56,017 nt of DNA from Bacillota bacterium. Its GTDB lineage: Bacteria; Bacillota; Clostridia; TANB77; CAG-508. Where the stretch lies: NCBI GenBank assembly GCA_963928635.1, contig CAWVFT010000039.1, forward strand, positions 1-56,017, read 5' to 3'. A program made the position numbers and the translations under genes. Shown in pieces: positions 7,968-53,583 of this stretch. Under the pieces are notes generated by a model. That model was not told the origin of the DNA, searched no databases, and saw only the letters and a program-made list of their open reading frames with translations. Within the stretch, counting starts at the first letter, position 1, and the number at the start of each line of letters is the position of its first letter.

Positions 7968-8002
7968 TCCTTTCTCGTTTTTTTGCTTGCAAAAAGTATT
8001 TT

Positions 8003-8203: not shown

Positions 8204-8317
8204 TTTTGTTTCCCTTTCTGTGAATAAATTACAAATCTATATGTTTTTTCTATTGTTTTACTCATATAAAATTTACAAAATTGTTTTTTGTAAAAACTTA
8301 TATATCTACCTATAAAA

Positions 8318-13142: not shown

Positions 13143-13148
13143 AAAATA

Positions 13149-13405
13149 GGGAAAAATGGGGACTTACTCAGTTTTCCCTCTATTTAAATATAAATGTGAA
13201 AATATATATTAAAATGCAGTGACGCGCAGTTTGGGAGGATGCCAATTCATATAGACCAGTCCTGCGCAACTGCTCATAATATAAAATTGTTGACCAAGTT
13301 CCTTATATGATAAGTCCGACCAGTAAGGAACGAAATTTTAATATATATTTTCACAAAAATAGAGAATTAGAAAAGGGAAAACTGAGTAAGTCCCCATTTT
13401 CCCCC
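13149..13405. repeat. 257-nt nested palindrome (long-stem hairpin) with a GC-rich structured core
   Basis: The outer arms aaaatggggacttactcagttttccct (13153-13179) and 13374-13400 are perfect complements. The inner arms tgtgaaaatatatattaaaat (13195-13215) and 13335-13355 are also perfect. ctctattt (13178-13185) pairs with aaatagag (13357-13364). The roughly 119-nt core holds further hairpins (GCAGT..GCGCAG/CTGCGC.ACTGC and GTTCCTTA/TAAGGAAC). Confidence 0.9.
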
Positions 13406-25822: not shown

Positions 25823-25899
<77 letters not shown>

Positions 25900-25931
25900 A
25901 AGTTTTTTATGATTTTAATATGTACCTTTAT

Positions 25932-25960
25932 ATTATACTTTATATATCAAAAAAATTCAA
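25932..25960 (-). promoter_or_regulatory. Sigma-A promoter for tRNA-Arg(ACG)
   Basis: The minus strand reads TTGAAT-17 nt-TATAAT. Confidence 0.55.
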
Positions 25961-25978
25961 TAAATTTCTAAAAAAATC

Positions 25979-26007
25979 TTGCAAATTCCTTTAAAACATG
26001 TTATAGT
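25979..26007 (+). promoter_or_regulatory. Sigma-A promoter for tRNA-Pro
   Basis: TTGCAA-17 nt-TATAGT with an extended -10 TG, 18 nt upstream of the tRNA. It is divergent from the tRNA-Arg promoter. Confidence 0.55.
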
Positions 26008-26024
26008 ATATTAGTACGATTTAT

Positions 26025-26100
26025 CGAGGCGTAGCGCAGTTGGTAGCGCGCGTGGTTTGGGACCATGAGGTCGCAGGTTCGAACCCTGTCGCCTCGACCA
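26025..26100 (+). tRNA. tRNA-Pro (anticodon TGG)
   Basis: CGAGGCGTAGCGCAGTTGGTAGCGCGCGTGGTTTGGGACCATGAGGTCGCAGGTTCGAACCCTGTCGCCTCGACCA. The anticodon loop is TTTGGGA. Confidence 0.9.
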
Positions 26101-26246
26101 TACTTTGAACAAAAGGAAATGGCGTCAACTGTAATAGTTGATGTCCTTTTTTAATAAATAATTGAAAGAGGCTTTTCATGAATTGAAATAGCCTTTTTTC
26201 TTTATGGTCAAAATCAATTCTATGCGTATTTTTTATGTTTCAAAAT

Positions 26247-26894
26247 CTAATCTTTAAAATTTCTTTTCATTTGTTTTACTACTCCAATTATTTCTATCGG
26301 CATTGTTTTCATTTCTTCATTTGTAAGTATAATCGGTTCATAATCAGGAGATATTGTTTGAAAAATAATATTTTCTTTGCTTTTCCATACTTTTCTTATT
26401 ATTGATTTCTTTTTATCTATATTGAGAGCTACAAAATCCCCATTTTCAAAATACTTTTGTTTTTTTATAATAATAATGTCATTTGTTATTAATGTTGGAT
26501 ACATTGTATTTTCTAGTATTTTTGCTGATATATATTCAGTTTGTTCTTTTTGCTTTTTATTTGTTGTTTTTTCTGTTAAATTTTCTTCTATATATTCAAT
26601 TTCTGTTTTTGTATTTCCGAAAAATTCTTTTAATTTTCTTGTTTTGGGATCTGCTTTTCCTGGATTATAATACTTATCATCTGTAATTCCTATTAACCAT
26701 ACTGATGAAACTTTAAAATATTCTGCTATTTTTATTAGCACATTTATATCTATATTTTTTGTTTTCCCTGATGCATATTTGGAAATTGTTCCTTTAGATT
26801 TAAATCCTAATCCTTCTGCAATTTCCATGTAATTAAGATTACAGTCGTTTATCAACTCTTTGAATCTTTCAGAAAAAATTTTTTCAAACTTCAT
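26247..26894 (-). CDS. CI/LexA-like repressor: XRE-type HTH fused to an S24 peptidase-like domain
   Basis: N-terminal HTH (NYMEIAEGLGFKSKGTISKYASGKT). The C-terminal S24 layout is ENTMYPTLITNDIIIIKK...NGDFVAL...IIRKV...IIGVV. A Thr (T130, codon 26505-26507) occupies the position of the catalytic Ser in GDSMxP. Confidence 0.75.
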   Translation of the reverse strand: MKFEKIFSERFKELINDCNLNYMEIAEGLGFKSKGTISKYASGKTKNIDINVLIKIAEYFKVSSVWLIGITDDKYYNPGKADPKTRKLKEFFGNTKTEIEYIEENLTEKTTNKKQKEQTEYISAKILENTMYPTLITNDIIIIKKQKYFENGDFVALNIDKKKSIIRKVWKSKENIIFQTISPDYEPIILTNEEMKTMPIEIIGVVKQMKRNFKD

Positions 26895-28612: not shown

Positions 28613-28764
28613 CAAAGGGGACGGGGCAAAATGGCAATTTTTTAAAAAATTTATTATATTTATATTATTTTATGGAACAACGTCTAATATAAAAATAATT
28701 TGTCAAAAATATCCGTAACTATTGACACATTAAAAAATTGCCATTTTGCCCCGTCCCCTTTGTC
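28611..28764. repeat. Perfect 35-bp inverted repeat around an 84-nt AT-rich spacer (GGGGACGGGGC motif family)
   Basis: gacaaaggggacggggcaaaatggcaattttttaa (28611-28645) is the exact reverse complement of 28730-28764. The left arm overlaps the M23 stop codon (28610-28612), and the right arm ends 8 nt before the htrA stop codon. Confidence 0.95.
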
Positions 28765-28772
28765 ACCCTTTG

Positions 28773-29954
28773 TCATTTTCCTAATACTATTTTTATTTCT
28801 TTGTTAATCTTCCCTCTTGTTACCTTTAAAGTCACTTCATCATTTGGCTTTTTGGTATAAATATATTCTCTTAAATCATTCATTGTGCTTAAATTTTTTT
28901 CGTCTATCGAAATGATAATATCTCCCTCTTTTAGCTCTGTTTTATCCGCCGGTCCATTTTTTGTTATTTGAACTACATATATTCCCTCTTCGAATTTAAT
29001 ATTGCTATTTAAATATGGTATTACTTCTTTATCATATGCTGATATTCCTATTGTTGCTTGTTCAAATTTTCCTGTATTTTTATAGCTCTCAATTATGTTT
29101 TTTACTACATTTATAGGTATTGCAAACCCTATACCTTCTGCTGATGTTATTTTTACTGTGTTTATTCCTACAACTTCTCCATTTGGTGTAATTAATGGTC
29201 CTCCACTATTTCCTGGGTTTATAGTTGCATCTGTTTGTATTAAATCTGACATATATACTTGTGAGCCATTTTCTTCTAGTTTTATAGTTCTATTTTTTGC
29301 ACTTATTATCCCTGATGTTACTGTTCTTCTAAATTCAAATCCTATTGGATTTCCTATTGCATATACTGTTTCTCCTACTCTTATTTCTTTAGAATCTCCT
29401 AATGCGACATACGACAAATTTTTTGCTTCTATTTTTGTAATTGATATATCTAGGCTTGTATCGCTCCACATTACTGTCCCATCATATGTTTTTCCATCTT
29501 CTAATGTTACATAGCATTTACTATATTTACTTCCTGTAACATGTTCATTACTTAGTATATATCCGTTTTCTGTTACTATTACTCCTGTTCCTAACCCTAA
29601 CTCTTCTGCCGTATTATTAGAAAATATTGAATTTCCTACATTTTTTAATTTTGATATTCCTACTACGCTTCTAGTTGTTTTTTCTATCATATCTGCTATT
29701 TTTGTACTATTTTCTTCTACATTTTCCACAGTTTGTTCTTGATTTGTGGATATTGTCTTTGATGCTTCATAATTTGGTTCTTTTACTTCTATTTTTTGGT
29801 ATGTAAAATATATATAAAATCCTAAAATCCAAAAAATGAGCAATATTATAAAAGTTATTATTACTTTTTTTAAATTACTCATTTTTCTTCTTTTACTTTT
29901 TCTCAAAATCAACACCTCTTTTATATTATGGGCTGATTTTGTTTTTTTAAACAT
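28773..29954 (-). CDS. htrA: HtrA/DegP family serine protease with a PDZ domain
   Basis: TM anchor, a trypsin-like core with GNSGGPL, and a C-terminal PDZ domain. It overlaps the fadD-like stop by 8 nt. Confidence 0.9.
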   Translation of the reverse strand: MFKKTKSAHNIKEVLILRKSKRRKMSNLKKVIITFIILLIFWILGFYIYFTYQKIEVKEPNYEASKTISTNQEQTVENVEENSTKIADMIEKTTRSVVGISKLKNVGNSIFSNNTAEELGLGTGVIVTENGYILSNEHVTGSKYSKCYVTLEDGKTYDGTVMWSDTSLDISITKIEAKNLSYVALGDSKEIRVGETVYAIGNPIGFEFRRTVTSGIISAKNRTIKLEENGSQVYMSDLIQTDATINPGNSGGPLITPNGEVVGINTVKITSAEGIGFAIPINVVKNIIESYKNTGKFEQATIGISAYDKEVIPYLNSNIKFEEGIYVVQITKNGPADKTELKEGDIIISIDEKNLSTMNDLREYIYTKKPNDEVTLKVTRGKINKEIKIVLGK

Positions 29955-31680
29955 TTTTTAGTTCTTCATATCTTTTTACTTTTTGAGTTGTCGTTTTTAT
30001 TAATGGTTCTTTTGTTATTGTTATGCTTTTTATGTGTTTATATACTGGCAATGTTTTGTTTATTTCTTTTATTTCTTCCCATATTTTTTCTTTATATTCT
30101 TTTTCTGTTTTTTCTCCTAATGCTTTTTTGATTTCGTCTTGATTATATACTATTTTTGCACATAACATTGTGTCTGTATTGCTTTGGTCTCTTGAATATA
30201 CTAATGATTCTTCAACATATGGTATTTTATTTATTAGGAATTCTATTTCTTGTGGATATACATTTTTTCCATTTTTTAATACTATTATATCTTTTTTTCT
30301 TCCTGTTACCCATATAAATCCGTCTTTTTCCATATATCCATAGTCTCCTGTTTTGAACCATCCATCTTCAAAGCTTTTTTGGTTTTCTTCTTCATTATTA
30401 TAATATCCTAGCATTACGCTTGGTCCTTTTACTGCTATTTCTCCTTCGCCTTTTTCGTCTGGGTCTAATATTTTTACATTTAGGCTTGGCAATGCTATTC
30501 CGACTGAGCCTGGTCTTTTTTCTTTATCTGTTTCTGCTGCTATTACTGGTGATGTTTCTGTTAGACCATATCCTTGTACTAGGTCTATTCCAAAGTTGTT
30601 ATACCATACTACTGTTTCTTTATTCATTGGTGCTGATCCATATAGTACTACTCTTAAATGTCCTCCTAGATTATCTAGTATTTGCTTAAATACCTTTTTT
30701 CTTATATCTATTTTAATTTTTAAGAATGCATTTGATATTTTAATCATTTTGTTTATTAGTTTTGTTTTTCCTTGTGCTTCTATTGCTTTTGTTATTTTTT
30801 TACACATTGTTTCTAGCACTAGTGGTACTGCTACAAATACTGTTATTTTATATTCTATTAGATTTGACTGTATGTGTTTTAATCCATCGCAAAATGCTAC
30901 TGTTGCGCCACTATAAAATCCATAAAGGAATGTTACTGTACATTCGAAAGTATGATGTATTGGTAAGAATGAAAGTAATGTGTCTGTTGGATATAGTTTT
31001 ACCCAACTTGAGAAATCCGTAATATTTGCACATATGTTTCCTTGTGATAACATTACTGCTTTTGCTTCGTTTGTTGTTCCTGATGTGAATAACATTATTG
31101 CCATTTTGTCATTATCTATTTTTATTTCATCATATCTTTTATCTCCATTTGATACTAGTTTTTCTCCTTTTTTTAGTAACTCGTTAAAATTTAATATTTC
31201 TTTTTCATTTGTTTTATCCATACAAATTAATTTTTTCAAATTTGTATCTTCTCTTTTTTGTAATTTTTTTGCTACTTCCAGATATTTTTTGTCAAATATC
31301 ATTACTTCTGCTTCACTTCTTTTTACTAGGTTTTCTATTTCATTATCTGGTAATGCTTTATCTATTGGTACTACTACCATGTTTCCTGTTGTTATTGCAA
31401 AATAGCTAATGCACCATTCGTATCTGTTGTTTCCTATTAGTACTATCCTTTTTTCTTCTAGTCCCATGTCTAAAAGCTCTGTTGATAGACTTTTTACATC
31501 TTTTCCAACTTGTTCATATGTTTTTTCGATGTATTCTACTTTTTTTGCTGTATAATCTTTTTTGTATTTGTATGCAATGTTCTTTGCAAAATTTTTGCAT
31601 GAGTATTCTAGCATCTCTCTAAAGTTTTTTACTGGTCTTGCTTCATATACTCTCCTATTTTCATTGTCACCCATATACAT
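29947..31680 (-). CDS. Long-chain fatty acid-CoA ligase (FadD-like, AMP-binding family)
   Basis: AMP-binding motif LFTSGTTNEAKAVMLS, plus GYGLTETS and TGDYGYMEKDGFIWVTGRKKDIIV. Confidence 0.85.
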   Translation of the reverse strand: MYMGDNENRRVYEARPVKNFREMLEYSCKNFAKNIAYKYKKDYTAKKVEYIEKTYEQVGKDVKSLSTELLDMGLEEKRIVLIGNNRYEWCISYFAITTGNMVVVPIDKALPDNEIENLVKRSEAEVMIFDKKYLEVAKKLQKREDTNLKKLICMDKTNEKEILNFNELLKKGEKLVSNGDKRYDEIKIDNDKMAIMLFTSGTTNEAKAVMLSQGNICANITDFSSWVKLYPTDTLLSFLPIHHTFECTVTFLYGFYSGATVAFCDGLKHIQSNLIEYKITVFVAVPLVLETMCKKITKAIEAQGKTKLINKMIKISNAFLKIKIDIRKKVFKQILDNLGGHLRVVLYGSAPMNKETVVWYNNFGIDLVQGYGLTETSPVIAAETDKEKRPGSVGIALPSLNVKILDPDEKGEGEIAVKGPSVMLGYYNNEEENQKSFEDGWFKTGDYGYMEKDGFIWVTGRKKDIIVLKNGKNVYPQEIEFLINKIPYVEESLVYSRDQSNTDTMLCAKIVYNQDEIKKALGEKTEKEYKEKIWEEIKEINKTLPVYKHIKSITITKEPLIKTTTQKVKRYEELKNV

Positions 31681-31799
31681 TCCTTCTTTCTTTCTTTTTT
31701 TGATTTTATATTATTTTAAACTTTATTGCAATACTTTTTTATTCATTTTGTTACTTATGGGTTGCAGTTTGTTACAATTTAGTACAACAAAAACTTAAA

Positions 31800-31837
31800 T
31801 AGCGCGAGAATGTAGTTATTAGCTAATGGCCATAGGC
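31800..31837. other. 38-nt GC-richer insert flanked by a 9-bp direct repeat in the fadD/NRPS divergent intergenic region
   Basis: aaacttaaa (31791-31799) | tagcgcgagaatgtagttattagctaatggccataggc | aaacttaaa (31838-31846). Confidence 0.5.
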
Positions 31838-31912
31838 AAACTTAAACGATATTATAATATCAACAGTTTTCAATATATAGTAACAGAATGTAATAAATTA
31901 ATATATGAGTAA

Positions 31913-31940
31913 TTGACTTTTTTTATAACTTTGATATAAT
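31913..31940 (+). promoter_or_regulatory. Near-consensus sigma-A promoter of the NRPS gene
   Basis: TTGACT (31913-31918)-16 nt-TATAAT (31935-31940) with an extended -10 TG (tgaTATAAT). The track's ATG 31939 lies inside the -10 element, so the start is ATG 31975. Confidence 0.65.
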
Positions 31941-31974
31941 GATTTTGTCGAAAATTGTAAAAAAGGTGATAGTA

Positions 31975-34900
31975 ATGGAAAATTTAGAAAAGTATGAGCT
32001 TACTTACCCTCAAAAATCAATTTGGATTACAGAACAATTTTACAATGGCACATCTGTTAATCATATTTGCGGGTCAGCTATATTTCACGAAAAATTAGAT
32101 TTTAAATTATTGGAAGAAGCTATTCATTTAGTTATTTCTTCTCACCAAAATTTTAATTTGAAATTTTGCGTAGATAAAGGTTTACCTAAGCAATATCTTT
32201 CTGACGCCAAAAATATTGAAATTAATATGGTAGATATAAAATCAAGGGAGGATTTAAATTTATTAAATCAGAAATTGATTTCTATTCCTTTCTCTTTACA
32301 AGACTCTTTTTTATTTCGTTTTGTTATATTCCGTTTTCCAGATAATACGGGTGGATATTCTTTAGATATTCACCATTTAATAGCCGACGCATATTCTCTT
32401 GGTCATGTTGCTTCTTGTATTGTCGATGCTTATTCTAATTTAATTAACAATAAAAAAGTTGAAAATGGTTTTGTGGATTCTTATTTGGATTTTGCTAAAT
32501 CTGAACAAGAATATCTTTCTAGTGCAAAATTTAATAAAGATGAGTCTTATTGGAATGAACAATTTGAAATGATTCCAAGTATAGCTACAATACCTTCAAA
32601 ATCTTCAGTTACAAGCATTTCTTCTTCCGCTGCTAAAAGGAAAGTATTTAAGATTCCTTCTTCTATCCTTAATAATGTTAGGAATTTTTGCAAAGAGTCT
32701 CATGTTTCCTTATTTAATTTCTTTATGGCTGTTTATTCTATATATATAGGTAGAATTACTAATTTACATCATTTTGTAATTGGTACTCCTATATTAAATA
32801 GAACTAATTTTAAAGAGAAATCATGTTTTGGCATGTTTATAAGTACGGTTCCTTTTGTTGTTAATATTGCAGAAGATGAATCTTTTTCAACATTTTTGAA
32901 GCAGGTAGCTTATGATTCAATGGGAATGTTAAAACACCAAAAATACCCATATCAATTACTTTTGGAACATCTTCGTAAAACAAACCCAACAATACCAAAC
33001 TTGTATAATATATTACTTTCTTATCAGATAACTAACACTAAAAGTTGTACTTCTGATTTATCTTATTCAACTTCTTGGAATTTTAATGGAAATTGTGCTG
33101 ATGATATAGATATTCATTTGTTTGATATTAATGATACAGGTGCTTTAACCATTGCATATGATTATCAAACTTCTCGTTACACTTTAAGTGATATAGAACA
33201 AATTCATGCAAGAATTATTCATATTATTCATCAAGTCTTAAGTAATCCTAACTTAAGTATAGAAAATGTTTCTATTGTAACAAAGCACGAACAAAATGAA
33301 TTGATACATACTTTTAATAAAACTAATTTAAAATATCCAAAAGATAAATATATTATTCAATATTTTGAGGATATTGCATCAAATGCTCCTAATACTGCAG
33401 CTATTATTTTTCATCATGCAAGGTTGACTTACAGACAGTTGAATGAAAAAGCTAATAGTTTAGCTTATGCTCTTCGTGAAAGAGGGTTAAAAAATAATGA
33501 TATAGTTGGAATTTTAATTCCTCGTTCTTTCGAGATGATGGTAGCGATTTTGGCTGTTTTAAAATGCGGAGCAAGCTATATTCCTATTGACCCAGATTAT
33601 CCTAGTGATAGAATTAAATATATGTTAAAAAATAGCAAGACTGCATTATTACTTTCTAACAAAGAACTTATGGAAAAAGGAAATTATAATATTGATTTTA
33701 TAGATATTTCATTAGAAAATTCTTCTATTTATGATGTTCATAAAGAAAATATCGAAAATATTTCTAATCCTGATGATTTATCTTATATTATATACACCTC
33801 AGGCTCTACAGGAAATCCAAAAGGTGTTATGCTTACCCAAAAAAATCTTATGAATTTTTACCATTCTATGATTTTAAGTGCTCCTTTTTTAACAGATGGT
33901 AAAAAACATAGAGTTTTATCTATGACAACTATATCTTTTGATATATTCTTGTTTGAGACTCTTATATCTTTGGCTTGCGGGTTAACTTTATATATTACCG
34001 ATTATTATGAGCAAAAAATTACATCTAAACTTGAAAGACTTATTGAGGAAAATAAAATAGATGTTATTCAAACTACACCTTCTGTAATGAGGTTTCATTT
34101 GGATAATTTGAGTAATTTATCTTCATTTTCTTCTTTAAAACATATTACCTTAGCAGGGGAACCTTTGCCTAAAAATTTGGTGACTGATTTGAAAGCAATT
34201 TCTCCTAATTGTAGAGTTTATAACGGATATGGCCCTTCTGAGACTACAATTTTTTCTACTTACACTGATGTTACAGATTTAGATAATATTACTATAGGAA
34301 GACCTATTTCTAATACTCAAATTTATATTTTAGGTAAAAACTTATCAATTATACCTAAAGGCACTATTGGTGAAATCTATATTGCAGGCGATGGTGTTGG
34401 AAAGGGATATCTTTTCCGTGATGATTTAACTTGTGAAAGATTTATTGAAAATCCTTTTTTGCCTAATACTATTATGTATCGTACAGGTGATTTAGGTCTA
34501 TGGCTAGATGATGGGACTATAGAATGTAAAGGCAGAATGGATAATCAAATTAAATTACATGGGCTTCGTATAGAGTTAGGCGAAATTGAAGAGAGAATTA
34601 ATTCTTTTAAAGAAGATAATTTATTGCGTTCAGCTGTTATAGTAAAAGATGTTGATGGTAATATTTCTTTAAATGCCTTTTTAACATACCCTCACAAACT
34701 TGATATTGAAGCATTAAAGCAATATTTATTATCAAATTTACCTAGCTATATGATGCCTTCTACATTTACTCTTATAGATGCTTTTCCATTTACACCTAAT
34801 GGAAAAATTGACCGTAAGGCATTACAAAATTATAAAATTTCTAATGTTAGTATTCAAACTGATGTTGCTGAACCAAGAAATGAAATAGAGACTATTTTAG

Positions 34901-36315
34901 TTAAAACAATTTCTAAGAAATTAAACACTAAAAATTTTGGTATAGATAGTAATATTTTTGATTTTGGAGCTGATTCTCTAACTATTATAAATATTCTTAC
35001 TGATTTATTTAAATATAACTTGAATTTAAAAGTTTATGATTTATACCAATATCCTACAGTTCGTAGCTTATATGATAATCTGCTTAATGCAAGTGAATTA
35101 AAAAAAGATTTAGATGTGTCTCATTTCTTAGAATTAAATAATTTAGTTAATACATTTTCTAAAAATACTAAGACAAAAGAATCTACTGCTAAACATACTG
35201 TTTTATTAACTGGTTGTACTGGATTTTTAGGCTCTCATATTTTAATAGAGTTATTACAAAATCCTAGTATAGAAAAGATTTATTGCTTGATGCGTAATAA
35301 AAATAATATAGAAATGGACGAGAGATTTTGGAGTAAAATTCATTTCTATTTTGACGATAAATATGACCAATTAATTAAAGATTCTGTTATATTAATCAAA
35401 GGTAACATTACAAGAGAAAAACTTGGCTTTAGTGAAAAAAAATATGTAGATTTATGTTCTGAAATAGATACAGTTATTCATACAGCTGCTAATGTTAAAC
35501 ATTATGGTAGATATTCTGATTTCGAATCAATTAATATTAATGGAACTAAAAATATTATTGATTTCTGTTTTGATGCTAATGCTCATTTGCATCATATATC
35601 TACCATGACTGTTTCTGGTAATTATTTATTAGAACAAAACTCTACTCAGGCTCCTTTTGATGAAAATACTTTTTATGAAAATCAAAATTTTGATGATAAT
35701 GTTTATGCGAAAAGTAAATTAATCGCAGAAATGAATGTATTAGAAGCAATTTCTAAAGGTTTGGATGCTACTATCTATAGAATGGGAGATTTGACCGGTC
35801 GATATGTAGATGGAGGTTTCCAAGAAAATATTCAGGAAAATTCGATTTATTTAAGGCTAAAATCTATTATAGAAATTGGTGCTATTCCTAAGTCTATAGA
35901 AAATAATTTATTAGAATTTACTCCTATTGATTTTGCCGCAAAAGCTGTTGTTAAGATTATATGTTCTGAAAAATCTAATAATAGAATTTTCCATATATAT
36001 AATCCTAATATGTTAGAAACCAAAAAACTTATCAACTATGTAAATAGATTAGATTGTGCAATAAAAATAATTGATACAAAGTCTTTTAATAGTTTAATTA
36101 AAGAGTTATCTTCTAGTAAATATGATAGTGCTAAAGTGGTTGGTTTAATTAATGACTTTACTGATAACGAAGATTTGATATATAATTATACTATACCTCA
36201 GACTAATGATATTACGGTTGAATATCTTAAAAATTTAGACTTTGAGTGGCCAATTATTGATTTTAATTATATTAAAAATATCTTAGAATATATGAGAAAG
36301 GTTAAATTCATTTAA
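31975..36315 (+). CDS. Single-module non-ribosomal peptide synthetase, C-A-T-R (condensation, adenylation, thiolation, terminal thioester reductase)
   Basis: C domain: HHLIADAYS (HHxxxD). A domain: LSYIIYTSGSTGNPKGVMLT, NGYGPSETT, YRTGDLGLW, GRMDNQIKLHGLRIELGEIE, PNGKIDRKAL. T domain: FGADSLT. R domain: VLLTGCTGFLGSHIL Rossmann fold plus YAKSK (YxxxK). The start is ATG 31975, after an AAGGTGA SD. Confidence 0.9.
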   Translation: MENLEKYELTYPQKSIWITEQFYNGTSVNHICGSAIFHEKLDFKLLEEAIHLVISSHQNFNLKFCVDKGLPKQYLSDAKNIEINMVDIKSREDLNLLNQKLISIPFSLQDSFLFRFVIFRFPDNTGGYSLDIHHLIADAYSLGHVASCIVDAYSNLINNKKVENGFVDSYLDFAKSEQEYLSSAKFNKDESYWNEQFEMIPSIATIPSKSSVTSISSSAAKRKVFKIPSSILNNVRNFCKESHVSLFNFFMAVYSIYIGRITNLHHFVIGTPILNRTNFKEKSCFGMFISTVPFVVNIAEDESFSTFLKQVAYDSMGMLKHQKYPYQLLLEHLRKTNPTIPNLYNILLSYQITNTKSCTSDLSYSTSWNFNGNCADDIDIHLFDINDTGALTIAYDYQTSRYTLSDIEQIHARIIHIIHQVLSNPNLSIENVSIVTKHEQNELIHTFNKTNLKYPKDKYIIQYFEDIASNAPNTAAIIFHHARLTYRQLNEKANSLAYALRERGLKNNDIVGILIPRSFEMMVAILAVLKCGASYIPIDPDYPSDRIKYMLKNSKTALLLSNKELMEKGNYNIDFIDISLENSSIYDVHKENIENISNPDDLSYIIYTSGSTGNPKGVMLTQKNLMNFYHSMILSAPFLTDGKKHRVLSMTTISFDIFLFETLISLACGLTLYITDYYEQKITSKLERLIEENKIDVIQTTPSVMRFHLDNLSNLSSFSSLKHITLAGEPLPKNLVTDLKAISPNCRVYNGYGPSETTIFSTYTDVTDLDNITIGRPISNTQIYILGKNLSIIPKGTIGEIYIAGDGVGKGYLFRDDLTCERFIENPFLPNTIMYRTGDLGLWLDDGTIECKGRMDNQIKLHGLRIELGEIEERINSFKEDNLLRSAVIVKDVDGNISLNAFLTYPHKLDIEALKQYLLSNLPSYMMPSTFTLIDAFPFTPNGKIDRKALQNYKISNVSIQTDVAEPRNEIETILVKTISKKLNTKNFGIDSNIFDFGADSLTIINILTDLFKYNLNLKVYDLYQYPTVRSLYDNLLNASELKKDLDVSHFLELNNLVNTFSKNTKTKESTAKHTVLLTGCTGFLGSHILIELLQNPSIEKIYCLMRNKNNIEMDERFWSKIHFYFDDKYDQLIKDSVILIKGNITREKLGFSEKKYVDLCSEIDTVIHTAANVKHYGRYSDFESININGTKNIIDFCFDANAHLHHISTMTVSGNYLLEQNSTQAPFDENTFYENQNFDDNVYAKSKLIAEMNVLEAISKGLDATIYRMGDLTGRYVDGGFQENIQENSIYLRLKSIIEIGAIPKSIENNLLEFTPIDFAAKAVVKIICSEKSNNRIFHIYNPNMLETKKLINYVNRLDCAIKIIDTKSFNSLIKELSSSKYDSAKVVGLINDFTDNEDLIYNYTIPQTNDITVEYLKNLDFEWPIIDFNYIKNILEYMRKVKFI

Positions 36316-36360
36316 AAATTGCCAAAGGGTGCCAAAGGGGACGGGGCTTTTTGGCAATAT
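36315..36360 (+). repeat. Hairpin made of GCCAAAGGGTGCCAAA plus GGGGACGGGGC motifs, immediately after the NRPS stop
   Basis: Stem attgccaaa (36318-36326) with tttggcaat (36350-36358) and a GC-rich 23-nt loop. The 16-mer gccaaagggtgccaaa recurs at 39922-39937. Confidence 0.8.
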
Positions 36361-36413
36361 TGAAATTTTTGTTAGGTTTTACTAACAATTATTTAAAGTG
36401 TGAGGAGGTTAAA

Positions 36414-38417
36414 ATGAAAAAATTTTTAAAAAATATGAAAATATCTAATAAAATGGTATTATACTTTTGCTCTCTAGTCGTTGTTATAAGTGCTATCTTT
36501 TACTTTATATTACCTAATTTATTGAATTATCCACCAGACACAATTAATACTCAGTTTGATAAAGAAGTTTCAATTTTGTATTATTGTTTCCAATTTTTAA
36601 TAGCTGTTGTATTTATTTTACTAATTTTTACTATATATTTTAAAGTAGTTTTAAGAAAAGTAGATAAATGGGAAAAGACAAAAAGTAAAGATAAAGATGA
36701 AATTTTGAAAATTAGAAAATTTTGTCTTGATTTTCCTTATAAATTATATATCGCAATAGAGATTTTTCCTGTATTAATTGTTAGTTTAGTTTTAGAATTT
36801 ACTGGTAGTCATCCTGTTATTCTTATTTTTAAAATAGGTATTTTAGTTTTTAGTTTTGCTACATTATTAAGTTCATTTTTCTTAATGATTTCTAAAAACG
36901 TGTTATATCCTGTTTTAAGAGAAACTTCTATATTATTAGATATAACCGAACAAAAACATTCATTAGGACTAATGGCTAGACTAATATTTCAAATATTTCC
37001 TAGCGTTTTAGTTACAGCTTTGCTAATTGCTCTAATTGGTTATTCAAGATTAACTGTAGAAAAAGGAGATTTCTTATATACTTATTATAGTAAAGTTTTA
37101 GCTGATGCAAATTTGGATGAAAATATAGAAGGTGATCCTTTTGAATATGTAAAAGAAAATTTATCATCAATTTATATTTCACCTTCAGATTTTCTTTTTA
37201 TAGAATATCCTGATGGTACTATTAGAACTACAAATGGTACAGAACTTAGCCATTTCTTTGTAAAGTATATGCATGAATTATCTCCTTCTCATAATAATAG
37301 AGTCTATGAAGCTTATACTATAGATGCTCAAGGTGTTATTAGAGATTTTGAATATAGAGGTGTTGATTATACTGTTGGTTTCTATTATGAAATAGTAACT
37401 CCTTCTTTAATTTATTATTTCTTATTATCTGCTGGATTATTATTTTTGTTTAACCTAGTTGTAATTTGTTATATATCAAAATCTATAACTTCTGATATTC
37501 AAAGTGTTACAGACGGTTTAAATAAAATTATAGAAAGTGGAGAACATATAAATTATAAGAAATTACCTATAACTTCTAATGATGAACTTGGTGATTTGGC
37601 TATATCTTTTAACCAAATTCAAGATTTGACTAAACACAATATTGAAAAAATACATAGTAACCAAGATATGCTAATGGAAAGTGAACGTTTGGCATCTTTA
37701 GGTCAATTAATTGGTGGTATTGCTCATAACTTAAAAACTCCTATAATGTCTATCTCTGGTGCTGCAGAAGGTTTGTCTGATTTAATTAAAGAGTATGATT
37801 CTTCTATTGATGACCCAGATGTTAATTCTCAAGATCATCATGATATTGCTAAAGATATGAATGACTGGGTTGAGAAAATTAGAGAATATACAAGTTATAT
37901 GTCAGATGTTATTACAGCTGTTAAAGGTCAAGCTGTTACTATGTCTGAGACAGATTACGTTAATTTTGATATGGAAGAATTAGTTAAACGCGTTGATATT
38001 TTAATGAGACATGAATTAAAGAGTGCTTTAATATACCTAAATGTTTCTGTAAATGTTCCTGAACATACTACTATACATGGTGATATTAATACTTTAGTAC
38101 AAGTTATTAATAATATGATTTCTAACTCAATTCAGGCATATGCTGGTAAACCTGAACAAACTATAGATTTAATTATTAATAAGTCTGATGATAATATAAT
38201 TATTTCTGTTAGGGATTATGGTCCTGGCCTTCCTGATGGAGTTAAGGATAAGTTGTTTAATGAGATGATTACTACTAAAGGTAAAAATGGTACTGGCCTT
38301 GGACTTTATATGTCTTACTCTACTATTAAGGCTCATTTTAGAGGTGATATTACTTTTGAGTCAGAAAAAGGCAAAGGTGCTACATTTAATATTATTTTAC
38401 CTTTAAATGAAAAATAG
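36414..38417 (+). CDS. Multi-TM sensor histidine kinase (HAMP, HisKA and HATPase_c domains)
   Basis: About 6 TM segments and an extracytoplasmic loop of roughly 120 aa; HAMP (NDELGDLAISFNQIQ); H-box GGIAHNLKTPI; N-box NNMISNSIQA; G1 RDYGPGLP; G2 GTGLGLYMS. ATG 36414 follows a GAGGAGG SD. Confidence 0.9.
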   Translation: MKKFLKNMKISNKMVLYFCSLVVVISAIFYFILPNLLNYPPDTINTQFDKEVSILYYCFQFLIAVVFILLIFTIYFKVVLRKVDKWEKTKSKDKDEILKIRKFCLDFPYKLYIAIEIFPVLIVSLVLEFTGSHPVILIFKIGILVFSFATLLSSFFLMISKNVLYPVLRETSILLDITEQKHSLGLMARLIFQIFPSVLVTALLIALIGYSRLTVEKGDFLYTYYSKVLADANLDENIEGDPFEYVKENLSSIYISPSDFLFIEYPDGTIRTTNGTELSHFFVKYMHELSPSHNNRVYEAYTIDAQGVIRDFEYRGVDYTVGFYYEIVTPSLIYYFLLSAGLLFLFNLVVICYISKSITSDIQSVTDGLNKIIESGEHINYKKLPITSNDELGDLAISFNQIQDLTKHNIEKIHSNQDMLMESERLASLGQLIGGIAHNLKTPIMSISGAAEGLSDLIKEYDSSIDDPDVNSQDHHDIAKDMNDWVEKIREYTSYMSDVITAVKGQAVTMSETDYVNFDMEELVKRVDILMRHELKSALIYLNVSVNVPEHTTIHGDINTLVQVINNMISNSIQAYAGKPEQTIDLIINKSDDNIIISVRDYGPGLPDGVKDKLFNEMITTKGKNGTGLGLYMSYSTIKAHFRGDITFESEKGKGATFNIILPLNEK

Positions 38418-38692
38418 TATATTTACCGTTACAATTCACAGCAAATTAGTAAAATACTAAATGTTTTGTATATTATATTTCAGAAATTTTTCGGCTCAAT
38501 ACATAATTTAAGAAATTCTAAATTAATTTTTTGGCACCCTTTCACTTAGCCCTCACTTCGTTCGGCGCGAACATTTTCCAAAAAATTAATAAAGAATTTC
38601 TAAAATTACTCCAATCGCATTCAAAATTTTTTCAATATAATATATAAAACATTTAAAGTAACTAGTGCTAGGCTGTGAATTGTAACTATATA
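38418..38692. repeat. 275-nt nested imperfect palindrome inserted between the kinase and response-regulator genes
   Basis: Arms gttacaattcacagc (38428-38442) and gctgtgaattgtaac (38672-38686) are perfect. aaatgttttgtatattatatt pairs with aatataatatataaaacattt (1 mismatch), and taagaaattctaaattaatttttt pairs with aaaaaattaataaagaatttcta (2 mismatches). The GC-rich centre is ggcaccctttcacttagccctcacttcgttcggcgcgaac. Confidence 0.9.
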
Positions 38693-38712
38693 GTAACATT
38701 GAATTAATTTTT

Positions 38713-38754
38713 TTGTCAAAAATTGTTGCTTTTTGTATAACTTATTTATATAAT
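38713..38754 (+). promoter_or_regulatory. Candidate internal promoter(s) for the response-regulator gene
   Basis: TTGTCA (38713-38718)-17 nt-TATAAC (38736-38741), or alternatively TTGCTT-17 nt-TATAAT (38749-38754). Both lie between the palindrome and the RR SD. Confidence 0.35.
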
Positions 38755-38787
38755 ATGTTAAATATTACTTTCAAGGAGGTTTTACCC

Positions 38788-39846
38788 ATGAGAAAGGGCT
38801 TACAAAATAGCGAAAATATTCAAAATAATCAATATAGAATTATAGCTGTTGACGATGAAGAAGGAATTGTAGACTCTTTATCAATTTTTCTTAAAAGGTC
38901 TGGCTATGACTTTACTGGTATTACTGACCCTTTAGAAGCAATTGAAGTTGTTAAAAAGGAACATTTTGACTTAATGATTCTGGACTTTATTATGACACCT
39001 CTTCATGGCGACCAAGTCGTAGAGGAAATTAGGAAATTTAATAAAGATTTATATATTTTATTACTTACAGGTCATAAAGATTTAGCTCCTCCTTTAGAGA
39101 CAATTAGGAGGTTGGACATTCAAGGTTATTGTGAAAAAAGCGATAAATTCGATCAATTGCTATTATTAATTGAGTCTGGCATAAAATCCATTAAACAAAT
39201 GAATCAAATTAAACAAATTAATTTGGAATTAAAAGATACAAATGAAAAATTAGAACAAGCATATTTAGATTCTATAGAAACATTACGTTATACAATAGAA
39301 GCTAAAGATATATATACAAGAGGTCATTCAGATAGAGTTGCAGAATTTTCTGTGTTAATAGGTAAAAAATTAGGTCTTTCTGATAAAGATTTACATACTT
39401 TACATTTAGGCGGTCTATTCCATGATATTGGAAAAATAGGTGTTCCTGATAGTATTTTGCAAAAAGCTGACAAATTGACAGATGATGAATATTCTCAGAT
39501 AAAACAGCATCCAAATATAGGTGTTCACATATTATCAAATGCAGAAATTTTTAATGATATTTTGCCTATTGTAGAACATCATCACGAAAGATATGATGGT
39601 AATGGTTACCCTGGCAAATTAGCTGGCGAAGATATTCCATATCTTGCTAGAATTGCAGCTGTTGCAGATAGTTTTGATGCTATGTCTTCAAGAAGGGCTT
39701 ATCGTGATTCTTTGCCTTTAGATAAAATTGTATCTGAATTTATGCGTTGCAGAGGTACGCAGTTTGACCCAAAAATTGATGATGTTTTTATAGATATTTT
39801 GGAAAATCATTTTGATGAAATAAAAGAAATTCAAGAAAAATACTAG
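38788..39846 (+). CDS. Response regulator with an HD-GYP output domain (RpfG-type c-di-GMP phosphodiesterase)
   Basis: REC domain (IIAVDDEEG ... DLMILDFIMTP); HD-GYP domain (HSDRV ... LFHDIGKIGVP ... HHHERYDGNGYPGKL ... VADSFDAMSSRRAYR). ATG 38788 follows an AAGGAGG SD. Confidence 0.9.
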   Translation: MRKGLQNSENIQNNQYRIIAVDDEEGIVDSLSIFLKRSGYDFTGITDPLEAIEVVKKEHFDLMILDFIMTPLHGDQVVEEIRKFNKDLYILLLTGHKDLAPPLETIRRLDIQGYCEKSDKFDQLLLLIESGIKSIKQMNQIKQINLELKDTNEKLEQAYLDSIETLRYTIEAKDIYTRGHSDRVAEFSVLIGKKLGLSDKDLHTLHLGGLFHDIGKIGVPDSILQKADKLTDDEYSQIKQHPNIGVHILSNAEIFNDILPIVEHHHERYDGNGYPGKLAGEDIPYLARIAAVADSFDAMSSRRAYRDSLPLDKIVSEFMRCRGTQFDPKIDDVFIDILENHFDEIKEIQEKY

Positions 39847-39954
39847 GGATTTAGGGACGTATCTCTAAATCCCTATTTTTCGGGATTTCGGGGACAGATC
39901 TCAATTTTTTACATCTAATTTGCCAAAGGGTGCCAAATTGCCCCGTCCCCAATG
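39846..39954. repeat. Composite of four intergenic motif families between the RR and tex (convergent)
   Basis: gggatttagggacgtatctc (39846-39865) is the reverse complement of 3389-3408. Also present: the hairpin gggatttag/ctaaatccc, ggggacagatc (39890-39900), gccaaagggtgccaaa (39922-39937) and gccccgtcccc (39940-39950). Confidence 0.85.
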
Positions 39955-42141
39955 TCAAATTCCTTTCATTGATAGTGCAACTTTTTGTCTTTCTGCATCT
40001 ATTTTAATAACTTTAACTTTTACAATGTCTCCAACAGATACTATATCTGATGGGTTTTTTATGTATTTATCACTCATTTCTGATATATGTACTAATCCAT
40101 CATGTTTTACTCCAATATCTACAAATGCTCCAAAGTCTATTACATTTCTTACTGTTCCAGTTAAAATCATTCCTTCTTTTAAATCTTCTAGTTTTAAAAC
40201 GTCGCTTCTTAATATTGGTTTTGGCATATCTTCTCTTGGGTCTCTTCCTGGTTTTGATAATTCTGATATTATATCTGTTAATGTCATCTCTCCTATTCCC
40301 AATTCTTTTGCTGTTTTTGGGATGTCTATTGTTTTTAGTTTTTCTCGTAAGTTTTGTAATTTTTCTTTATCTCTTAAATCGTTTTTATCAAACCCTATAC
40401 TTGCAAGTAATTTTTCTGTTGCTTCATAGCTTTCTGGGTGTACTGCTGTTATTTCTAATGGGTTATCCCCATCCATTATTCTTAAAAATCCTGCACATTG
40501 TTCAAATGCTACTTTTCCTAGTTTTGGTACTTTTAGTAATTGTTTTCTATTTTTTAATTTTCCATTTTCATCTCTATATTTTACAATATTTTTAGCAATT
40601 GTACTGTTTATTCCTGATACATATGAAAGAAGTGATGGTGTTGCTGTGTTTACATCTACTCCTACTTTATTAACACTATCTTCTACGACTCCTGTAAGAC
40701 TTTCTGCTAATTTTTTCTGGTTTACATCATGTTGATATTGTCCTACTCCAATTGCCTTTGGGTCTATTTTTACTAATTCTGCTAGTGGGTCTTGTAGTCT
40801 TCTTGCTATTGATATTGCCCCTCTTATTGATACATTTATATCTGGATATTCTTCTGTTGCAAGTTTTGATGCTGAATATACAGATGCTCCTGCTTCACTT
40901 ACAATTACATAATGTACTGGTCTTGATGCTTCTTTTATCATATCTGCTACAAACATTTCTGATTCTCTTGATGCTGTTCCATTTCCTATTGCTATCATAT
41001 CTATTTTATCTTTGTCTATTAGTTTTAATAGTTCTTTTTTTGCTCCTTCTACATCATTTTGTGGTTCTGTTGGATATACTGTTGTATAGTCTAATACTTT
41101 TCCCGTCTCATCTATTACTGCTATTTTACATCCTGTTCTATATGCTGGGTCAAATCCCATTACTGTTTTTCCCTTTATTGGTGCTCCTAATAGCAGTTGT
41201 TTTGAGTTTTGTCCAAATACTTTTATTGCTTTATCTTCTGCTTTTTCTGTTAAGTCAGATCTTATTTCCCTATCTATTGATGGTTCTATTAGTCTTTTAA
41301 AAGCATCTAGTATTGTGTCTTTTAGCATTTCTGTAAATTGTGTTTCACCTTTTATTATATCTTTTTCTATATAGTTTAAAATTTTTTCTTCTGGTTTTTC
41401 TATTTTTACCTTTATAAATTCTTCTTTTTCTCCTCTATTTATTGCTAATATTCTATGACTTGGTATGTATTTTATTGGCTCTTTGTAATCATAATACATT
41501 TCGTAGTTTGATTTTTCGTCTTCTTTTGATGCTTTTGTTTCTATTAATGCTTCTCTGTAGCATTGTCTTTTTATTTCTTTTCTGTATTTTGGATTATCAG
41601 ATATGTCTTCTGCTATTATATCTAATGCTCCTTGTATTGCTTGTTCTGCATTTTCTACTACTTTATCTTTATTCTTCTTATCTTCTTCTGATAATTTTTC
41701 AATGTTTATGTATTCTTTGGCTATTTCTTCTATTGGTTTTGTTTCTTTTTGTTCTATTATTATTTGAGCTAGTGGCTCTAATCCTTTTGCTTTTGCAACT
41801 GTTGCTCTTGTTTTCTTTTTCTGTTTATATGGTCTATATATATCTTCTACTTCTGCTAGTGTTTTTGCTATTGCTACTGCTTGAAGAATTTCATCTGTAA
41901 GTTTTCCTTGTTCATCTATTGATTTTATTACTTCTTCTTTTCTTTGTTCTAGGTTTCTTAAATAATTTAATCTTTCCCCTAATTCCCTAAGTGTTTCGTC
42001 GCTTAGGCCTCCTGTTGCTTCTTTTCTATATCTTGCTATAAATGGTATTGTGTTCCCCTCATCTATTAGGTTTACTGCCGCTTCTACTTGTGTTTCTTTT
42101 ATGTTTAATTCTTCTGCTATTTGTTTATTTATTTTACTCAT
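39955..42141 (-). CDS. tex: Tex-like transcription accessory protein (YqgF, HhH and S1 domains)
   Basis: The N-terminal IAEELNIKETQVEAAVNLIDEGNTIPFIARYRKE is a classic Tex N-terminus. The C-terminal S1 domain is GMILTGTVRNVIDFGAFVDIGVKHDGLVHISE. Confidence 0.9.
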   Translation of the reverse strand: MSKINKQIAEELNIKETQVEAAVNLIDEGNTIPFIARYRKEATGGLSDETLRELGERLNYLRNLEQRKEEVIKSIDEQGKLTDEILQAVAIAKTLAEVEDIYRPYKQKKKTRATVAKAKGLEPLAQIIIEQKETKPIEEIAKEYINIEKLSEEDKKNKDKVVENAEQAIQGALDIIAEDISDNPKYRKEIKRQCYREALIETKASKEDEKSNYEMYYDYKEPIKYIPSHRILAINRGEKEEFIKVKIEKPEEKILNYIEKDIIKGETQFTEMLKDTILDAFKRLIEPSIDREIRSDLTEKAEDKAIKVFGQNSKQLLLGAPIKGKTVMGFDPAYRTGCKIAVIDETGKVLDYTTVYPTEPQNDVEGAKKELLKLIDKDKIDMIAIGNGTASRESEMFVADMIKEASRPVHYVIVSEAGASVYSASKLATEEYPDINVSIRGAISIARRLQDPLAELVKIDPKAIGVGQYQHDVNQKKLAESLTGVVEDSVNKVGVDVNTATPSLLSYVSGINSTIAKNIVKYRDENGKLKNRKQLLKVPKLGKVAFEQCAGFLRIMDGDNPLEITAVHPESYEATEKLLASIGFDKNDLRDKEKLQNLREKLKTIDIPKTAKELGIGEMTLTDIISELSKPGRDPREDMPKPILRSDVLKLEDLKEGMILTGTVRNVIDFGAFVDIGVKHDGLVHISEMSDKYIKNPSDIVSVGDIVKVKVIKIDAERQKVALSMKGI

Positions 42142-53306: not shown

Positions 53307-53383
53307 TGGAGCCACTTCCCAGATTCGAACTGGGGACCCTCGCATTACAAGTGCGATGCTCTGGCCAGCTGAGCTAAAGTGGC
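53307..53383 (-). tRNA. tRNA-Thr (anticodon TGT)
   Basis: The reverse complement is GCCACTTTAGCTCAGCTGGCCAGAGCATCGCACTTGTAATGCGAGGGTCCCCAGTTCGAATCTGGGAAGTGGCTCCA. Confidence 0.9.
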
Positions 53384-53389
53384 AAAATT

Positions 53390-53464
53390 TGGTGACCCCG
53401 ACGGGAATCGAACCCATGTCTCCGCCGTGAAAGGGCGATGTCTTAACCTCTTGACCACGGGGCC
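53390..53464 (-). tRNA. tRNA-Glu (anticodon TTC)
   Basis: The reverse complement is GGCCCCGTGGTCAAGAGGTTAAGACATCGCCCTTTCACGGCGGAGACATGGGTTCGATTCCCGTCGGGGTCACCA. Confidence 0.9.
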
Positions 53465-53507
53465 TTAAATACAAAGAACCAAATAATTACTCATTATTTA
53501 GTTCTTT

Positions 53508-53583
53508 TGGTGAGCTATCCGCGACTCGAACGCGGGACAACTTGATTAAAAGTCAAGTGCTCTACCACCTGAGCTAATAGCCC
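53508..53583 (-). tRNA. tRNA-Lys (anticodon TTT)
   Basis: The reverse complement is GGGCTATTAGCTCAGGTGGTAGAGCACTTGACTTTTAATCAAGTTGTCCCGCGTTCGAGTCGCGGATAGCTCACCA. Confidence 0.9.

Follow-up and report, generated by a model that had tools for sequence, protein, structure and literature searches.

The locus described here raises the question of why a nonribosomal peptide synthetase (NRPS), a membrane histidine kinase (HK) and a response regulator (RR) with an HD-GYP output domain lie next to one another in gut Clostridia, and what connects them. The locus is located on contig CAWVFT010000039.1 of a Bacillota bacterium, a stretch of 56,017 nt with a GC content of about 27%; we refer to this stretch as the window and give locus coordinates in its numbering. 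A preliminary description had read these three genes, together with a neighboring FadD-like ligase, as an rpf-like signaling layout. We found that the NRPS and the sensor domain of the HK vary together and form one hypervariable cassette, whose variants are alleles rather than lineages. Such a pattern would be expected of a signal that the cell makes itself and reads with a matched receptor. We lean, with a confidence a little above even, towards reading the locus as a product-sensing, pherotype-like circuit with a cyclic-dinucleotide output.

Exact or near-exact copies of the window locus were found in gut metagenome assemblies only. We scanned the regulator alignment against one genome per species, which identified 321 genomes with a relative, and analyzed the best 80 of these 321 (RR identity 78-89%). 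Open reading frames (ORFs) were called in all loci and then compared with the window proteins. Seven of the 80 loci end before the kinase or the NRPS and were left out, leaving 73 evaluable species-representative loci; the further lineages L103-L106, L107 and L108 lie beyond these. The Tex protein, which is 82-100% identical across loci, served as a housekeeping yardstick for relatedness. The carriers were uncultured Clostridia or metagenome-assembled genomes (MAGs) labeled 'Clostridium sp.', including Clostridium sp. CAG:389, CAG:343 and 28_17, from human, chicken, rabbit and mouse-catalogue gut samples.

Conserved linkage of synthetase, kinase and regulator

The same gene order was found in all 73 evaluable loci: an NRPS ending in a thioester-reductase (R) domain, then the HK, then a regulator combining a receiver (REC) domain with HD-GYP. 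A synteny check on these three genes had been set beforehand, and they proved adjacent in every one of these loci as well as in L103-L106 and L108. As the layout recurs in every evaluable related genome, it is far beyond chance. The gap between NRPS and HK had a median of 4 nt (longest-ORF estimate) and was at most 30 nt in 61 of the 73 loci; independent gene calls for eight loci ranged from an 11-nt overlap (L099) to 15 nt. Most loci are flanked by htrA and tex. In L103-L106, with Tex 82% identical, NRPS, HK and RR are kept, and the left flank has spo0A, an M1 peptidase and an SH3 protein in place of htrA and fadD. L108, with an HK core identity of 52%, lacks both htrA and tex in its vicinity; there, a condensation-adenylation-thiolation-reductase (C-A-T-R) NRPS abuts the kinase with zero gap, and a REC-DUF3369-HD-GYP regulator comes next. 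The persistence of the triad between other flanks in these lineages argues against mere conserved synteny.

All genes listed in the preliminary description were recovered where it had placed them, with ORFs and Pfam/NCBIfam domains in agreement, including the convergent tex gene on the right (Table 1). Its account of the NRPS as a single module that starts with a C domain and ends in a thioester reductase held. The domains span approximately aa 5-443 (C), 464-955 (A), 979-1034 (T, with Ser1011) and 1076-1446 (R), and the motifs HHLIADA, YTSGSTGNPKG, GADSL, GCTGFLG and YAKSK are intact. The 10-residue code of the A domain (type M5, see below) is DIFQTAGIFK, to which no substrate was assigned. 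Two-module relatives match the enzyme through their module 1 and R domain at 50-52% identity, covering 71% of the query in about 100 two-module proteins (including P0055 from 'Clostridium sp. 26_21'), and its C domain shares 51% identity with the first C domain (C1) of two-module enzymes versus 23% with the second (C2). The best NCBIfam match was AusA, far under the cut-off. The near-consensus promoter reported ahead of the NRPS was also confirmed as the top site scanned, and both of its hexamers, together with the TGTCGAAA leader, are kept in the M5-type loci L001, L011, L034, L036 and L045.

The A, T and R catalytic motifs, including GCTGFLG and YAKSK, are kept in all NRPS types despite an overall identity of 30-40%, which points to working enzymes rather than decaying ones. 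Judged by its domains, the single-module enzyme should make an amino aldehyde or alcohol. The product is probably N-acylated, since no carrier domain precedes the N-terminal C domain, which is the ortholog of C1 in two-module enzymes.

The kinase had been called a multi-transmembrane HAMP kinase. Six predicted transmembrane (TM) helices bear out the first part, but the HAMP call is weak, with a Pfam match (E = 0.0011, 19.7 bits) under the gathering score of 25. An AlphaFold model of the sensor (mdd25cc1894bd) had a pLDDT of 81 and a pTM of 0.73. Foldseek retrieved no solved structural relative of the sensor-only model at E < 0.1, its loop domain being weakly PAS-like, and returned kinase cores only when the full-length kinase model was used.

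The response regulator was correctly described as carrying an intact HD-GYP domain: REC and HD_5 were detected, with HDIGK and HHHERYDGNGYPG present. The regulator is 78-94% identical across the clade. Its REC residues D22, D23, D66, T94 and K117 are invariant, as are the HD-GYP residues H180, H212-D213, H241, H264-266, G273-Y274-P275 and D294 in the regulator alignment. The best solved matches were V-cGAP3 (5Z7C, E = 2e-41) and then PmGH (4MCW, E = 1e-36), and the most likely substrate appears to be cyclic di-GMP (c-di-GMP). The regulator gene forms a transcription unit of its own, driven by a promoter that is conserved in loci of all types. Homology to other-type loci restarts 60-80 nt upstream of the RR start codon.

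Table 1 Features of the locus in window coordinates.
Feature	Position	Strand	Details
FadD-like acyl-CoA synthetase (ANL superfamily)	29947-31680	-	Pfam AMP-binding, AMP-binding_C_3
Type-specific cassette, window type M5	31700-37550	+	Promoter, NRPS and sensor half of HK; delimited by DNA homology breaks
Promoter of the NRPS-HK unit	31913-31940	+	Sigma-70-type TTGACT, 16 nt, extended TG-TATAAT; 11/12 matches, best of 14-kb scan
NRPS, C-A-T-R, 1446 aa	31975-36315	+	Condensation, AMP-binding, PP-binding, NAD_binding_4/TIGR01746 thioester-reductase (Pfam, NCBIfam)
NRPS-HK spacer	36316-36413	+	Inserted terminator-like hairpin, 13-bp stem at ~36318-36358, fold z = -4.7
HK, whole gene, 667 aa	36414-38417	+	HisKA, HATPase_c; His438 in GGIAHNLKTP
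HK sensor region, aa 1-380 (variable half)	36414-37553	+	Five TM helices, extracytoplasmic alpha/beta domain (~aa 232-328), TM6; hydropathy
HK HAMP-like linker and conserved core, aa 381-667	37554-38417	+	Dimerization/phosphotransfer (DHp) and catalytic (CA) domains, His438; HisKA, HATPase_c
Nested palindrome, 260 nt, HK-RR spacer	38428-38686	.	Inverted repeats I22, I1, I2; fold -91.9 kcal/mol, z = -9.2
Regulator promoter	38727-38755	+	TTGCTT, 17 nt, TATAAT; kept upstream of RR in loci of all types
Response regulator, 352 aa	38788-39846	+	REC aa 17-135, HD-GYP ~aa 168-340; Pfam Response_reg, HD_5, HD
Intrinsic terminator closing the RR gene	39844-39875	+	14-bp stem, then T-run
tex, conserved right flank	39955-42141	-	Pfam Tex domains

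Co-variation of synthetase and sensor

We compared the proteins of 40 single-module loci pair by pair. The median identity was 36.5% for the NRPS and 29.9% for the HK sensor, and 74.6%, 81.2% and 88.4% for the HK core, the RR and Tex, respectively. The distributions were bimodal, with zero NRPS pairs at 45-55% identity and zero sensor pairs at 40-60%. Among pairs with Tex identity of at least 93%, those of the same type were 82% identical in the NRPS and 86% in the sensor, and those of different types 36% and 31%; pairs of either kind were 86-91% identical in the core and 92-93% in the RR. Within types, sensor identity had a median of 77% and reached 86% among close relatives.

NRPS identity and sensor identity were found to be tightly correlated, with a Mantel r of 0.98 in the single-module and two-module groups alike and a partial Mantel correlation of 0.97 with Tex controlled. 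Clustering of the single-module group gave eight NRPS types and eight sensor types that correspond one-to-one. The A-domain codes of these types are constant within a type and different between types, and the codes differ among the two-module types too. By comparison with published specificity codes, we take M3 (DLTKIGEVGK) to specify Asn, M4 (DFWNIGMVHK) Thr, M6 (DILQMGMIWK) a Gly-like residue and M2 (DSELTAEVCK) a His-like residue; Val and Pro-like codes were called on the same basis.

The number of NRPS modules also went with the architecture of the sensor. All 48 single-module NRPSs were paired with a 6-TM/HAMP-like sensor carrying the extracytoplasmic alpha/beta domain, and all 25 two-module NRPSs with a HisKA_7TM-PAS sensor. 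The boundary between variable and conserved sequence falls inside the kinase gene. Among eight type representatives, identity along the kinase was 17-43% up to residue 390 and 98% at aa 421-450. Compared with the 7TM-type kinase of L018, the window kinase is 61% identical from residue 381 on and shows no similarity before that residue, and the two loci share 72% identity in the regulator and 82% in Tex.

At the DNA level, homology between the window and other-type loci ends at 31691-31697, just past the fadD start codon, and is back at 37551-37558 (HK residue 380) or, for 7TM-type loci, at 37658; the overall return among types lies at HK aa 380-415. Same-type loci are homologous throughout, from 31910. 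The same cassette boundaries were observed in L034/L020/L024 and in L103/L106.

The types do not follow the relatedness of their hosts. One Tex clade (at least 95% amino-acid identity) holds M3 (seven genomes), D1 (eight) and M5 (one). The DNA of L103 and L106 is 98% identical in the left and right flanks and across NRPS module 1, where the match covers C-A and part of T. The two loci differ only in that one carries an R domain with a window-type sensor and the other C2-A2-T2-R with a 7TM-PAS sensor, and 98% identity is regained at the kinase DHp domain. L103 and L106 effectively belong to one species, in which an added NRPS module goes along with a change of sensor. Taken together, the NRPS and the HK sensor domain form one hypervariable cassette with alleles rather than lineages.

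At least eight single-module and seven two-module types occur in the 80 genomes. A search for homologues of the kinase core yielded mainly short fragments. Another search, among representatives at 50% identity, gave 422 kinases at E <= 1e-30, and the best 150 of these 422 comprised 77 full-length window-type and 27 full-length 7TM-type clusters, which indicates a natural sensor diversity far above the types seen in the 80 genomes.

The FadD-like gene lies outside this pattern. Its protein is 63-77% identical across loci whatever the NRPS type, and its gene was present in 28 of the 42 evaluable single-module loci and missing in 14; it is also absent from L016-L018, L103-L106 and L108. In D1 loci, 100 nt homologous to the 5' end of fadD were seen before the 10-kb flank ends. 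The label 'FadD-type' is itself generic: an AMP-binding gene is present, but it can be assigned only to the ANL superfamily, all NCBIfam matches being sub-cut-off, and among solved structures it comes closest to MatB and FadD13. The gene belongs to the conserved flank, and a third of loci lack it; it is an optional neighbor outside the co-varying cassette, and its role as an integral fourth part of the system did not survive the comparison.

In the variable half of the kinase, a single conserved island was observed. All eight single-module sensor types have the sequence LNYPPxxIxxxF(Q/D) in their first extracytoplasmic loop (HK aa 36-53, nt ~36519-36572). It is tempting to speculate that this motif touches some part of the ligand that does not vary between types.

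Proposed circuit and competing explanations

The circuit that we propose has two parts. The first would be the type-specific cassette, which has its own promoter and encodes the C-A-T-R NRPS and the membrane sensor half of the HK. The second, common to all alleles, would consist of the DHp/CA core and the separately transcribed REC-HD-GYP regulator. The NRPS would load a single amino acid chosen by the A domain of the allele; the C domain would probably N-acylate it, and the R domain would free the product reductively as an aldehyde or alcohol. The matching sensor domain would recognize this small hydrophobic product or a spontaneous derivative of it, which could reach the multi-TM sensor without a dedicated exporter. 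The kinase core would then phosphorylate the regulator, and HD-GYP would alter the concentration of a cyclic dinucleotide, which is most likely to be c-di-GMP. The alleles would thereby form separate signal-receptor specificity groups (pherotypes). We infer the structure of the product, its role as the ligand, the phosphotransfer from HK to RR and the nucleotide substrate from the sequences.

Several observations weigh against such a circuit. In the window and in L001-L010 only, an 80-nt terminator-like hairpin repeat is inserted between NRPS and HK; in the other M5 loci the spacer is 15 nt long and the ribosome-binding site comes right after the stop codon. The RR gene is inverted in place in five loci (L065, L069, L074, L077 and L078), and in four loci 1.2-3.5 kb of inserted DNA parts the RR from the HK. 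Frameshifts in HK or NRPS occur in several metagenome assemblies. V-cGAP3, the closest solved HD-GYP protein by sequence, is specific for 3'3'-cGAMP, and PmGH is a c-di-GMP enzyme. No c-di-GMP riboswitch was detected in the window, where an Rfam scan gave tRNAs only. No exporter is encoded at the locus, and nothing points to an autoinduction loop; the regulator lacks a DNA-binding domain. In the two-module type D6, the module-1 A-code varies among loci that share one sensor cluster at the 50% threshold. The very distant HK-RR relative L107 (HK core 35% identical; a 5-kb contig with a GC content of 41%) has its REC, 40% identical to that of the window, 13 nt downstream of the kinase and has no NRPS, so that NRPS linkage is present at 52% HK core identity (L108) and gone at 35%. 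Finally, adjacent segments can co-vary from linkage alone. As the cassettes are non-homologous, recombination would be confined to the conserved flanks, and mismatched combinations might be hard to generate. Pure hitch-hiking is argued against by the lack of co-variation in fadD, by the constraint on sensors within types, and by the L103/L106 pair, which keeps module 1 and swaps the sensor.

The most serious alternative is that the genes are linked without being coupled through a ligand. The kinase would sense an unrelated cue, the NRPS product would act outward, for example as a protease inhibitor, and the two would be adjacent in a recombination-cold island, with the NRPS and the exposed sensor as independent targets of diversifying selection. 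This would fit the contiguity of the segments, whose gap is so short in most loci, the lack of homology between the cassette DNA of different types that could support recombination, the retention of HK and RR without an NRPS in L107, and the lack of both exporter and autoinduction features. It would also fit the literature, in which gut products of R-terminated NRPSs are dipeptide aldehydes and protease inhibitors (PMC12327764). We nevertheless consider it unlikely. The FadD-like gene adjoins the NRPS on its other side and stays at the same identity in every type, so adjacency alone is insufficient for the pattern. The conservation of sensors within types shows that they are constrained and not merely fast-evolving, in all 73 loci the architecture of the sensor can be told from the number of modules, and the L103/L106 swap retains module 1, only the 3' remainder of the NRPS being replaced along with the sensor. 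The triad also survives in the unrelated neighborhood of L108.

Feedback or self-protection in the producer is hard to separate from signaling. Here the kinase would respond to the NRPS product itself or to stress that this product inflicts on envelope or proteostasis, and would tune the physiology of its own cell, with no role in cell-to-cell communication or kin discrimination. The same co-variation of NRPS and sensor applies to this explanation, and peptide aldehydes are reactive electrophiles. In addition, htrA, a quality-control protease gene, adjoins the locus in most lineages, and the output of the regulator is enzymatic rather than a transcriptional induction of the operon. A generic stress sensor, however, would need no type-matched domain; the htrA adjacency is gone in L103-L106 and L108, where the triad is kept; and several discrete alleles among close relatives and within species are more typical of recognition systems. 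We regard this explanation as rather improbable.

True rpf/DSF-type (diffusible signal factor) fatty-acid signaling, with the FadD-like ligase as a core component and a fatty-acid-derived signal, is very improbable, since the divergence of the ligase gene from the NRPS promoter in the window and the RpfG architecture of the regulator (REC, then HD-GYP) are outweighed by the absence of a crotonase/RpfF-type synthase from the locus genes, the non-hybrid kinase, and a ligase that sits in the conserved flank, does not co-vary and is missing from the loci named above. The four-part rpf analogy of the preliminary description holds only in part, the regulator being the component that agrees. Overall, the sequence evidence strongly supports the coupling of NRPS, HK and RR and weakly supports a role for the FadD-like protein and the rpf analogy.

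Neighboring features and comparison with known systems

Several insertions and repeats were observed in and around the locus. A family of short, terminator-like, GC-containing hairpin repeats with the core GGGTGCCAAA lies just 3' of stop codons at 36316-36360, 39917-39957 and 28748-28772, and a related hairpin pair was found at 39847-39898, in the terminator region 39844-39875, and at 3356-3407. We considered the 21-nt direct repeats 36316-36336 and 39917-39937 as marks of an insertion of HK and RR. This was rejected because the repeats are copies of the hairpin (which is also present at 28748-28772) and relatives without them keep the same gene order. The 260-nt palindrome in the HK-RR spacer is missing in close relatives, and partial copies (86-92%) were found at unrelated sites in L041, L011/L012 and L067. 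It was rejected as a regulatory element, as its presence in the window alone plus stray partial copies points to an insertion resembling a miniature inverted-repeat transposable element.

The HK-RR and RR-tex spacers were found to be insertion hot-spots (L100 10308-11724; L018 19289-19934; the HK-RR gaps of L058, L073, L086 and L089). The inserts include a gene for an extracytoplasmic function (ECF) sigma factor with a 310-aa gene, small helix-turn-helix (HTH) genes and 1.2-3.5 kb of other DNA; in L018 the HK-RR gap is ~940 nt with two small genes. In the five loci with an inverted RR gene, only the RR is flipped relative to HK/NRPS and tex and the gene order is otherwise kept, which suggests recombination between inverted repeats flanking the RR gene.

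Split genes were observed in several assemblies. The NRPS ORF is split in MAGs L019, L021, L022, L028, L031, L057, L068 and L077, which may reflect loss of function or assembly error. Among the fragments found with the kinase core were candidate sensor-less kinases, and two that were followed up turned out to be kinases split at the HAMP motif. In L100-L102, the HK (~6894-8901) is split into sensor and core ORFs by a 1-nt insertion in the HAMP motif (SNDELGELTVAFN), seen in 13 contigs; the HK of L099 (8974-10981) is split with likewise overlapping sensor and core ORFs. The kinase splits in L099-L102 may be real loss-of-function variants or assembly errors.

In the distant lineages, the L108 regulator (12180-13688) is 502 aa long with the extra DUF3369 between REC and HD-GYP, and a HepT/MNT toxin-antitoxin pair lies downstream where tex would be. 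In L107, a 424-aa PilZ-domain protein (1276-2550) is encoded directly upstream of the distant kinase homologue, which would tie the wider HK-RR family to c-di-GMP indirectly. Elsewhere in the window, three tRNA genes at 53310-53583 and a gene for a TraG/TrwB-type coupling protein at 54277-56004, which ends 13 bases before the window end, may mark the edge of an integrated conjugative element. At 25826-26894, two tRNA genes flank an intergenic stretch by genes for a LexA-like repressor (HTH and Peptidase_S24) and a cytidine-deaminase-fold protein, and the gene content around it varies between relatives (L011 vs L014).

To place the proposed circuit, we compared it with known systems. Its sequence-level features are closest to those of agr in Staphylococcus and comCDE in Streptococcus, which form pherotype specificity groups. 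As in those systems, a hypervariable segment covers signal gene and sensor domain while the kinase core and regulator are conserved, and discrete alleles that match signal and sensor one-to-one occur in close relatives and within species, incongruent with phylogeny. In contrast, agr and comCDE use a ribosomal peptide processed by AgrB or ComAB and a DNA-binding regulator that autoinduces the operon, whereas here an NRPS would make the signal and the output is an HD-GYP phosphodiesterase domain with its own RR promoter. 

The Xanthomonas rpf system comprises RpfF, RpfC, RpfG and RpfB. The likeness lies in a membrane HK leading to a REC-HD-GYP regulator, a putative small hydrophobic self-made signal and, in the window, a ligase-like gene beside the synthase. 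The differences are that no gene of the locus has an RpfF-type crotonase domain and a C-A-T-R NRPS takes the synthase position; that the kinase is not an RpfC-type hybrid, ending in HATPase_c at aa 667 with no REC or histidine-phosphotransfer (HPt) domain; that the ligase is dispensable; that synthase and sensor form allelic cassettes; and that the hosts are low-GC Bacillota-type gut MAGs.

In Vibrio, the multi-TM kinases CqsS and LuxN sense small hydrophobic autoinducers (CAI-1 in the case of CqsS) made by the products of the adjacent synthase genes, cqsA and luxM. A multi-TM sensor kinase beside a synthase gene is common to these systems and the locus. Theirs differ in that the synthase is a pyridoxal phosphate-dependent acyl-CoA transferase or an acyl-homoserine lactone synthase, the kinases are hybrids with a phosphorelay to a transcription factor, and no such allelic cassette is known. 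PvfC of Pseudomonas and AusA of S. aureus, which makes the aureusimines, are A-T-R type NRPSs with reductive release and proposed aldehyde signals. The reductive release of amino or peptide aldehydes is shared; no cyclic-dinucleotide output, type-matched sensor or dedicated adjacent receptor kinase is known for either.

The nearest enzymes are those of the gut NRPS-R clusters. Such clusters of gut Clostridia reportedly make dipeptide aldehydes or pyrazinones (Guo et al., 2017). Like them, the window enzyme is R-terminated with an N-terminal C domain, comes from gut Clostridia and has an intact NAD(P)H site and YxxxK, and its two-module relatives occupy the same locus as alternative alleles. 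It differs in having one C-A-T module, which would give an amino aldehyde or alcohol, perhaps N-acylated, and not a dipeptide product. Gut clusters are known for dipeptide aldehydes with pyrazinone by-products (PMC12327764), and ruminopeptin is a further NRPS-R product of gut Clostridia (Schneider et al., as summarized in PMC12327764). The role published for them is to inhibit host proteases. That an NRPS-R gene is always paired with a sensor kinase of matching type and an HD-GYP regulator is, as far as we found, undescribed. In the full-text literature searched, neither a linkage of NRPS, kinase and HD-GYP nor pherotypes of NRPS and sensor were described, and absence there is not proof of absence. 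The proposed circuit would be of the autoinducer two-component kind, its allelic structure resembling that of agr and its parts being an NRPS and an HD-GYP output.

The peptide aldehydes made by the widespread gut NRPS-R enzymes have so far been treated chiefly as inhibitors of host proteases. A receptor and an output tied to each synthetase allele offer a testable alternative, namely kin-specific chemical signaling in organisms that have never been cultured. More broadly, and with a confidence somewhat short of even, we suggest that the R-terminated NRPSs of abundant uncultured gut Clostridia are primarily autoinducer synthases, the chemically distinct (acyl-)amino or dipeptide aldehyde of each allele being read only by the co-inherited sensor. 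On that view, dozens of small-molecule pherotypes would act on cyclic-dinucleotide levels through one conserved HD-GYP regulator, the agr/com groups would have a non-ribosomal counterpart, and gut peptide aldehydes would gain a native function not assigned to them before. The natural allele series supplies ready matched and mismatched pairs for receptor-ligand experiments and offers a rare case in which to study how an NRPS product and its receptor specificity evolve together. If the proposed circuit is correct, it would link secondary metabolism directly to cyclic-dinucleotide signaling in Bacillota.

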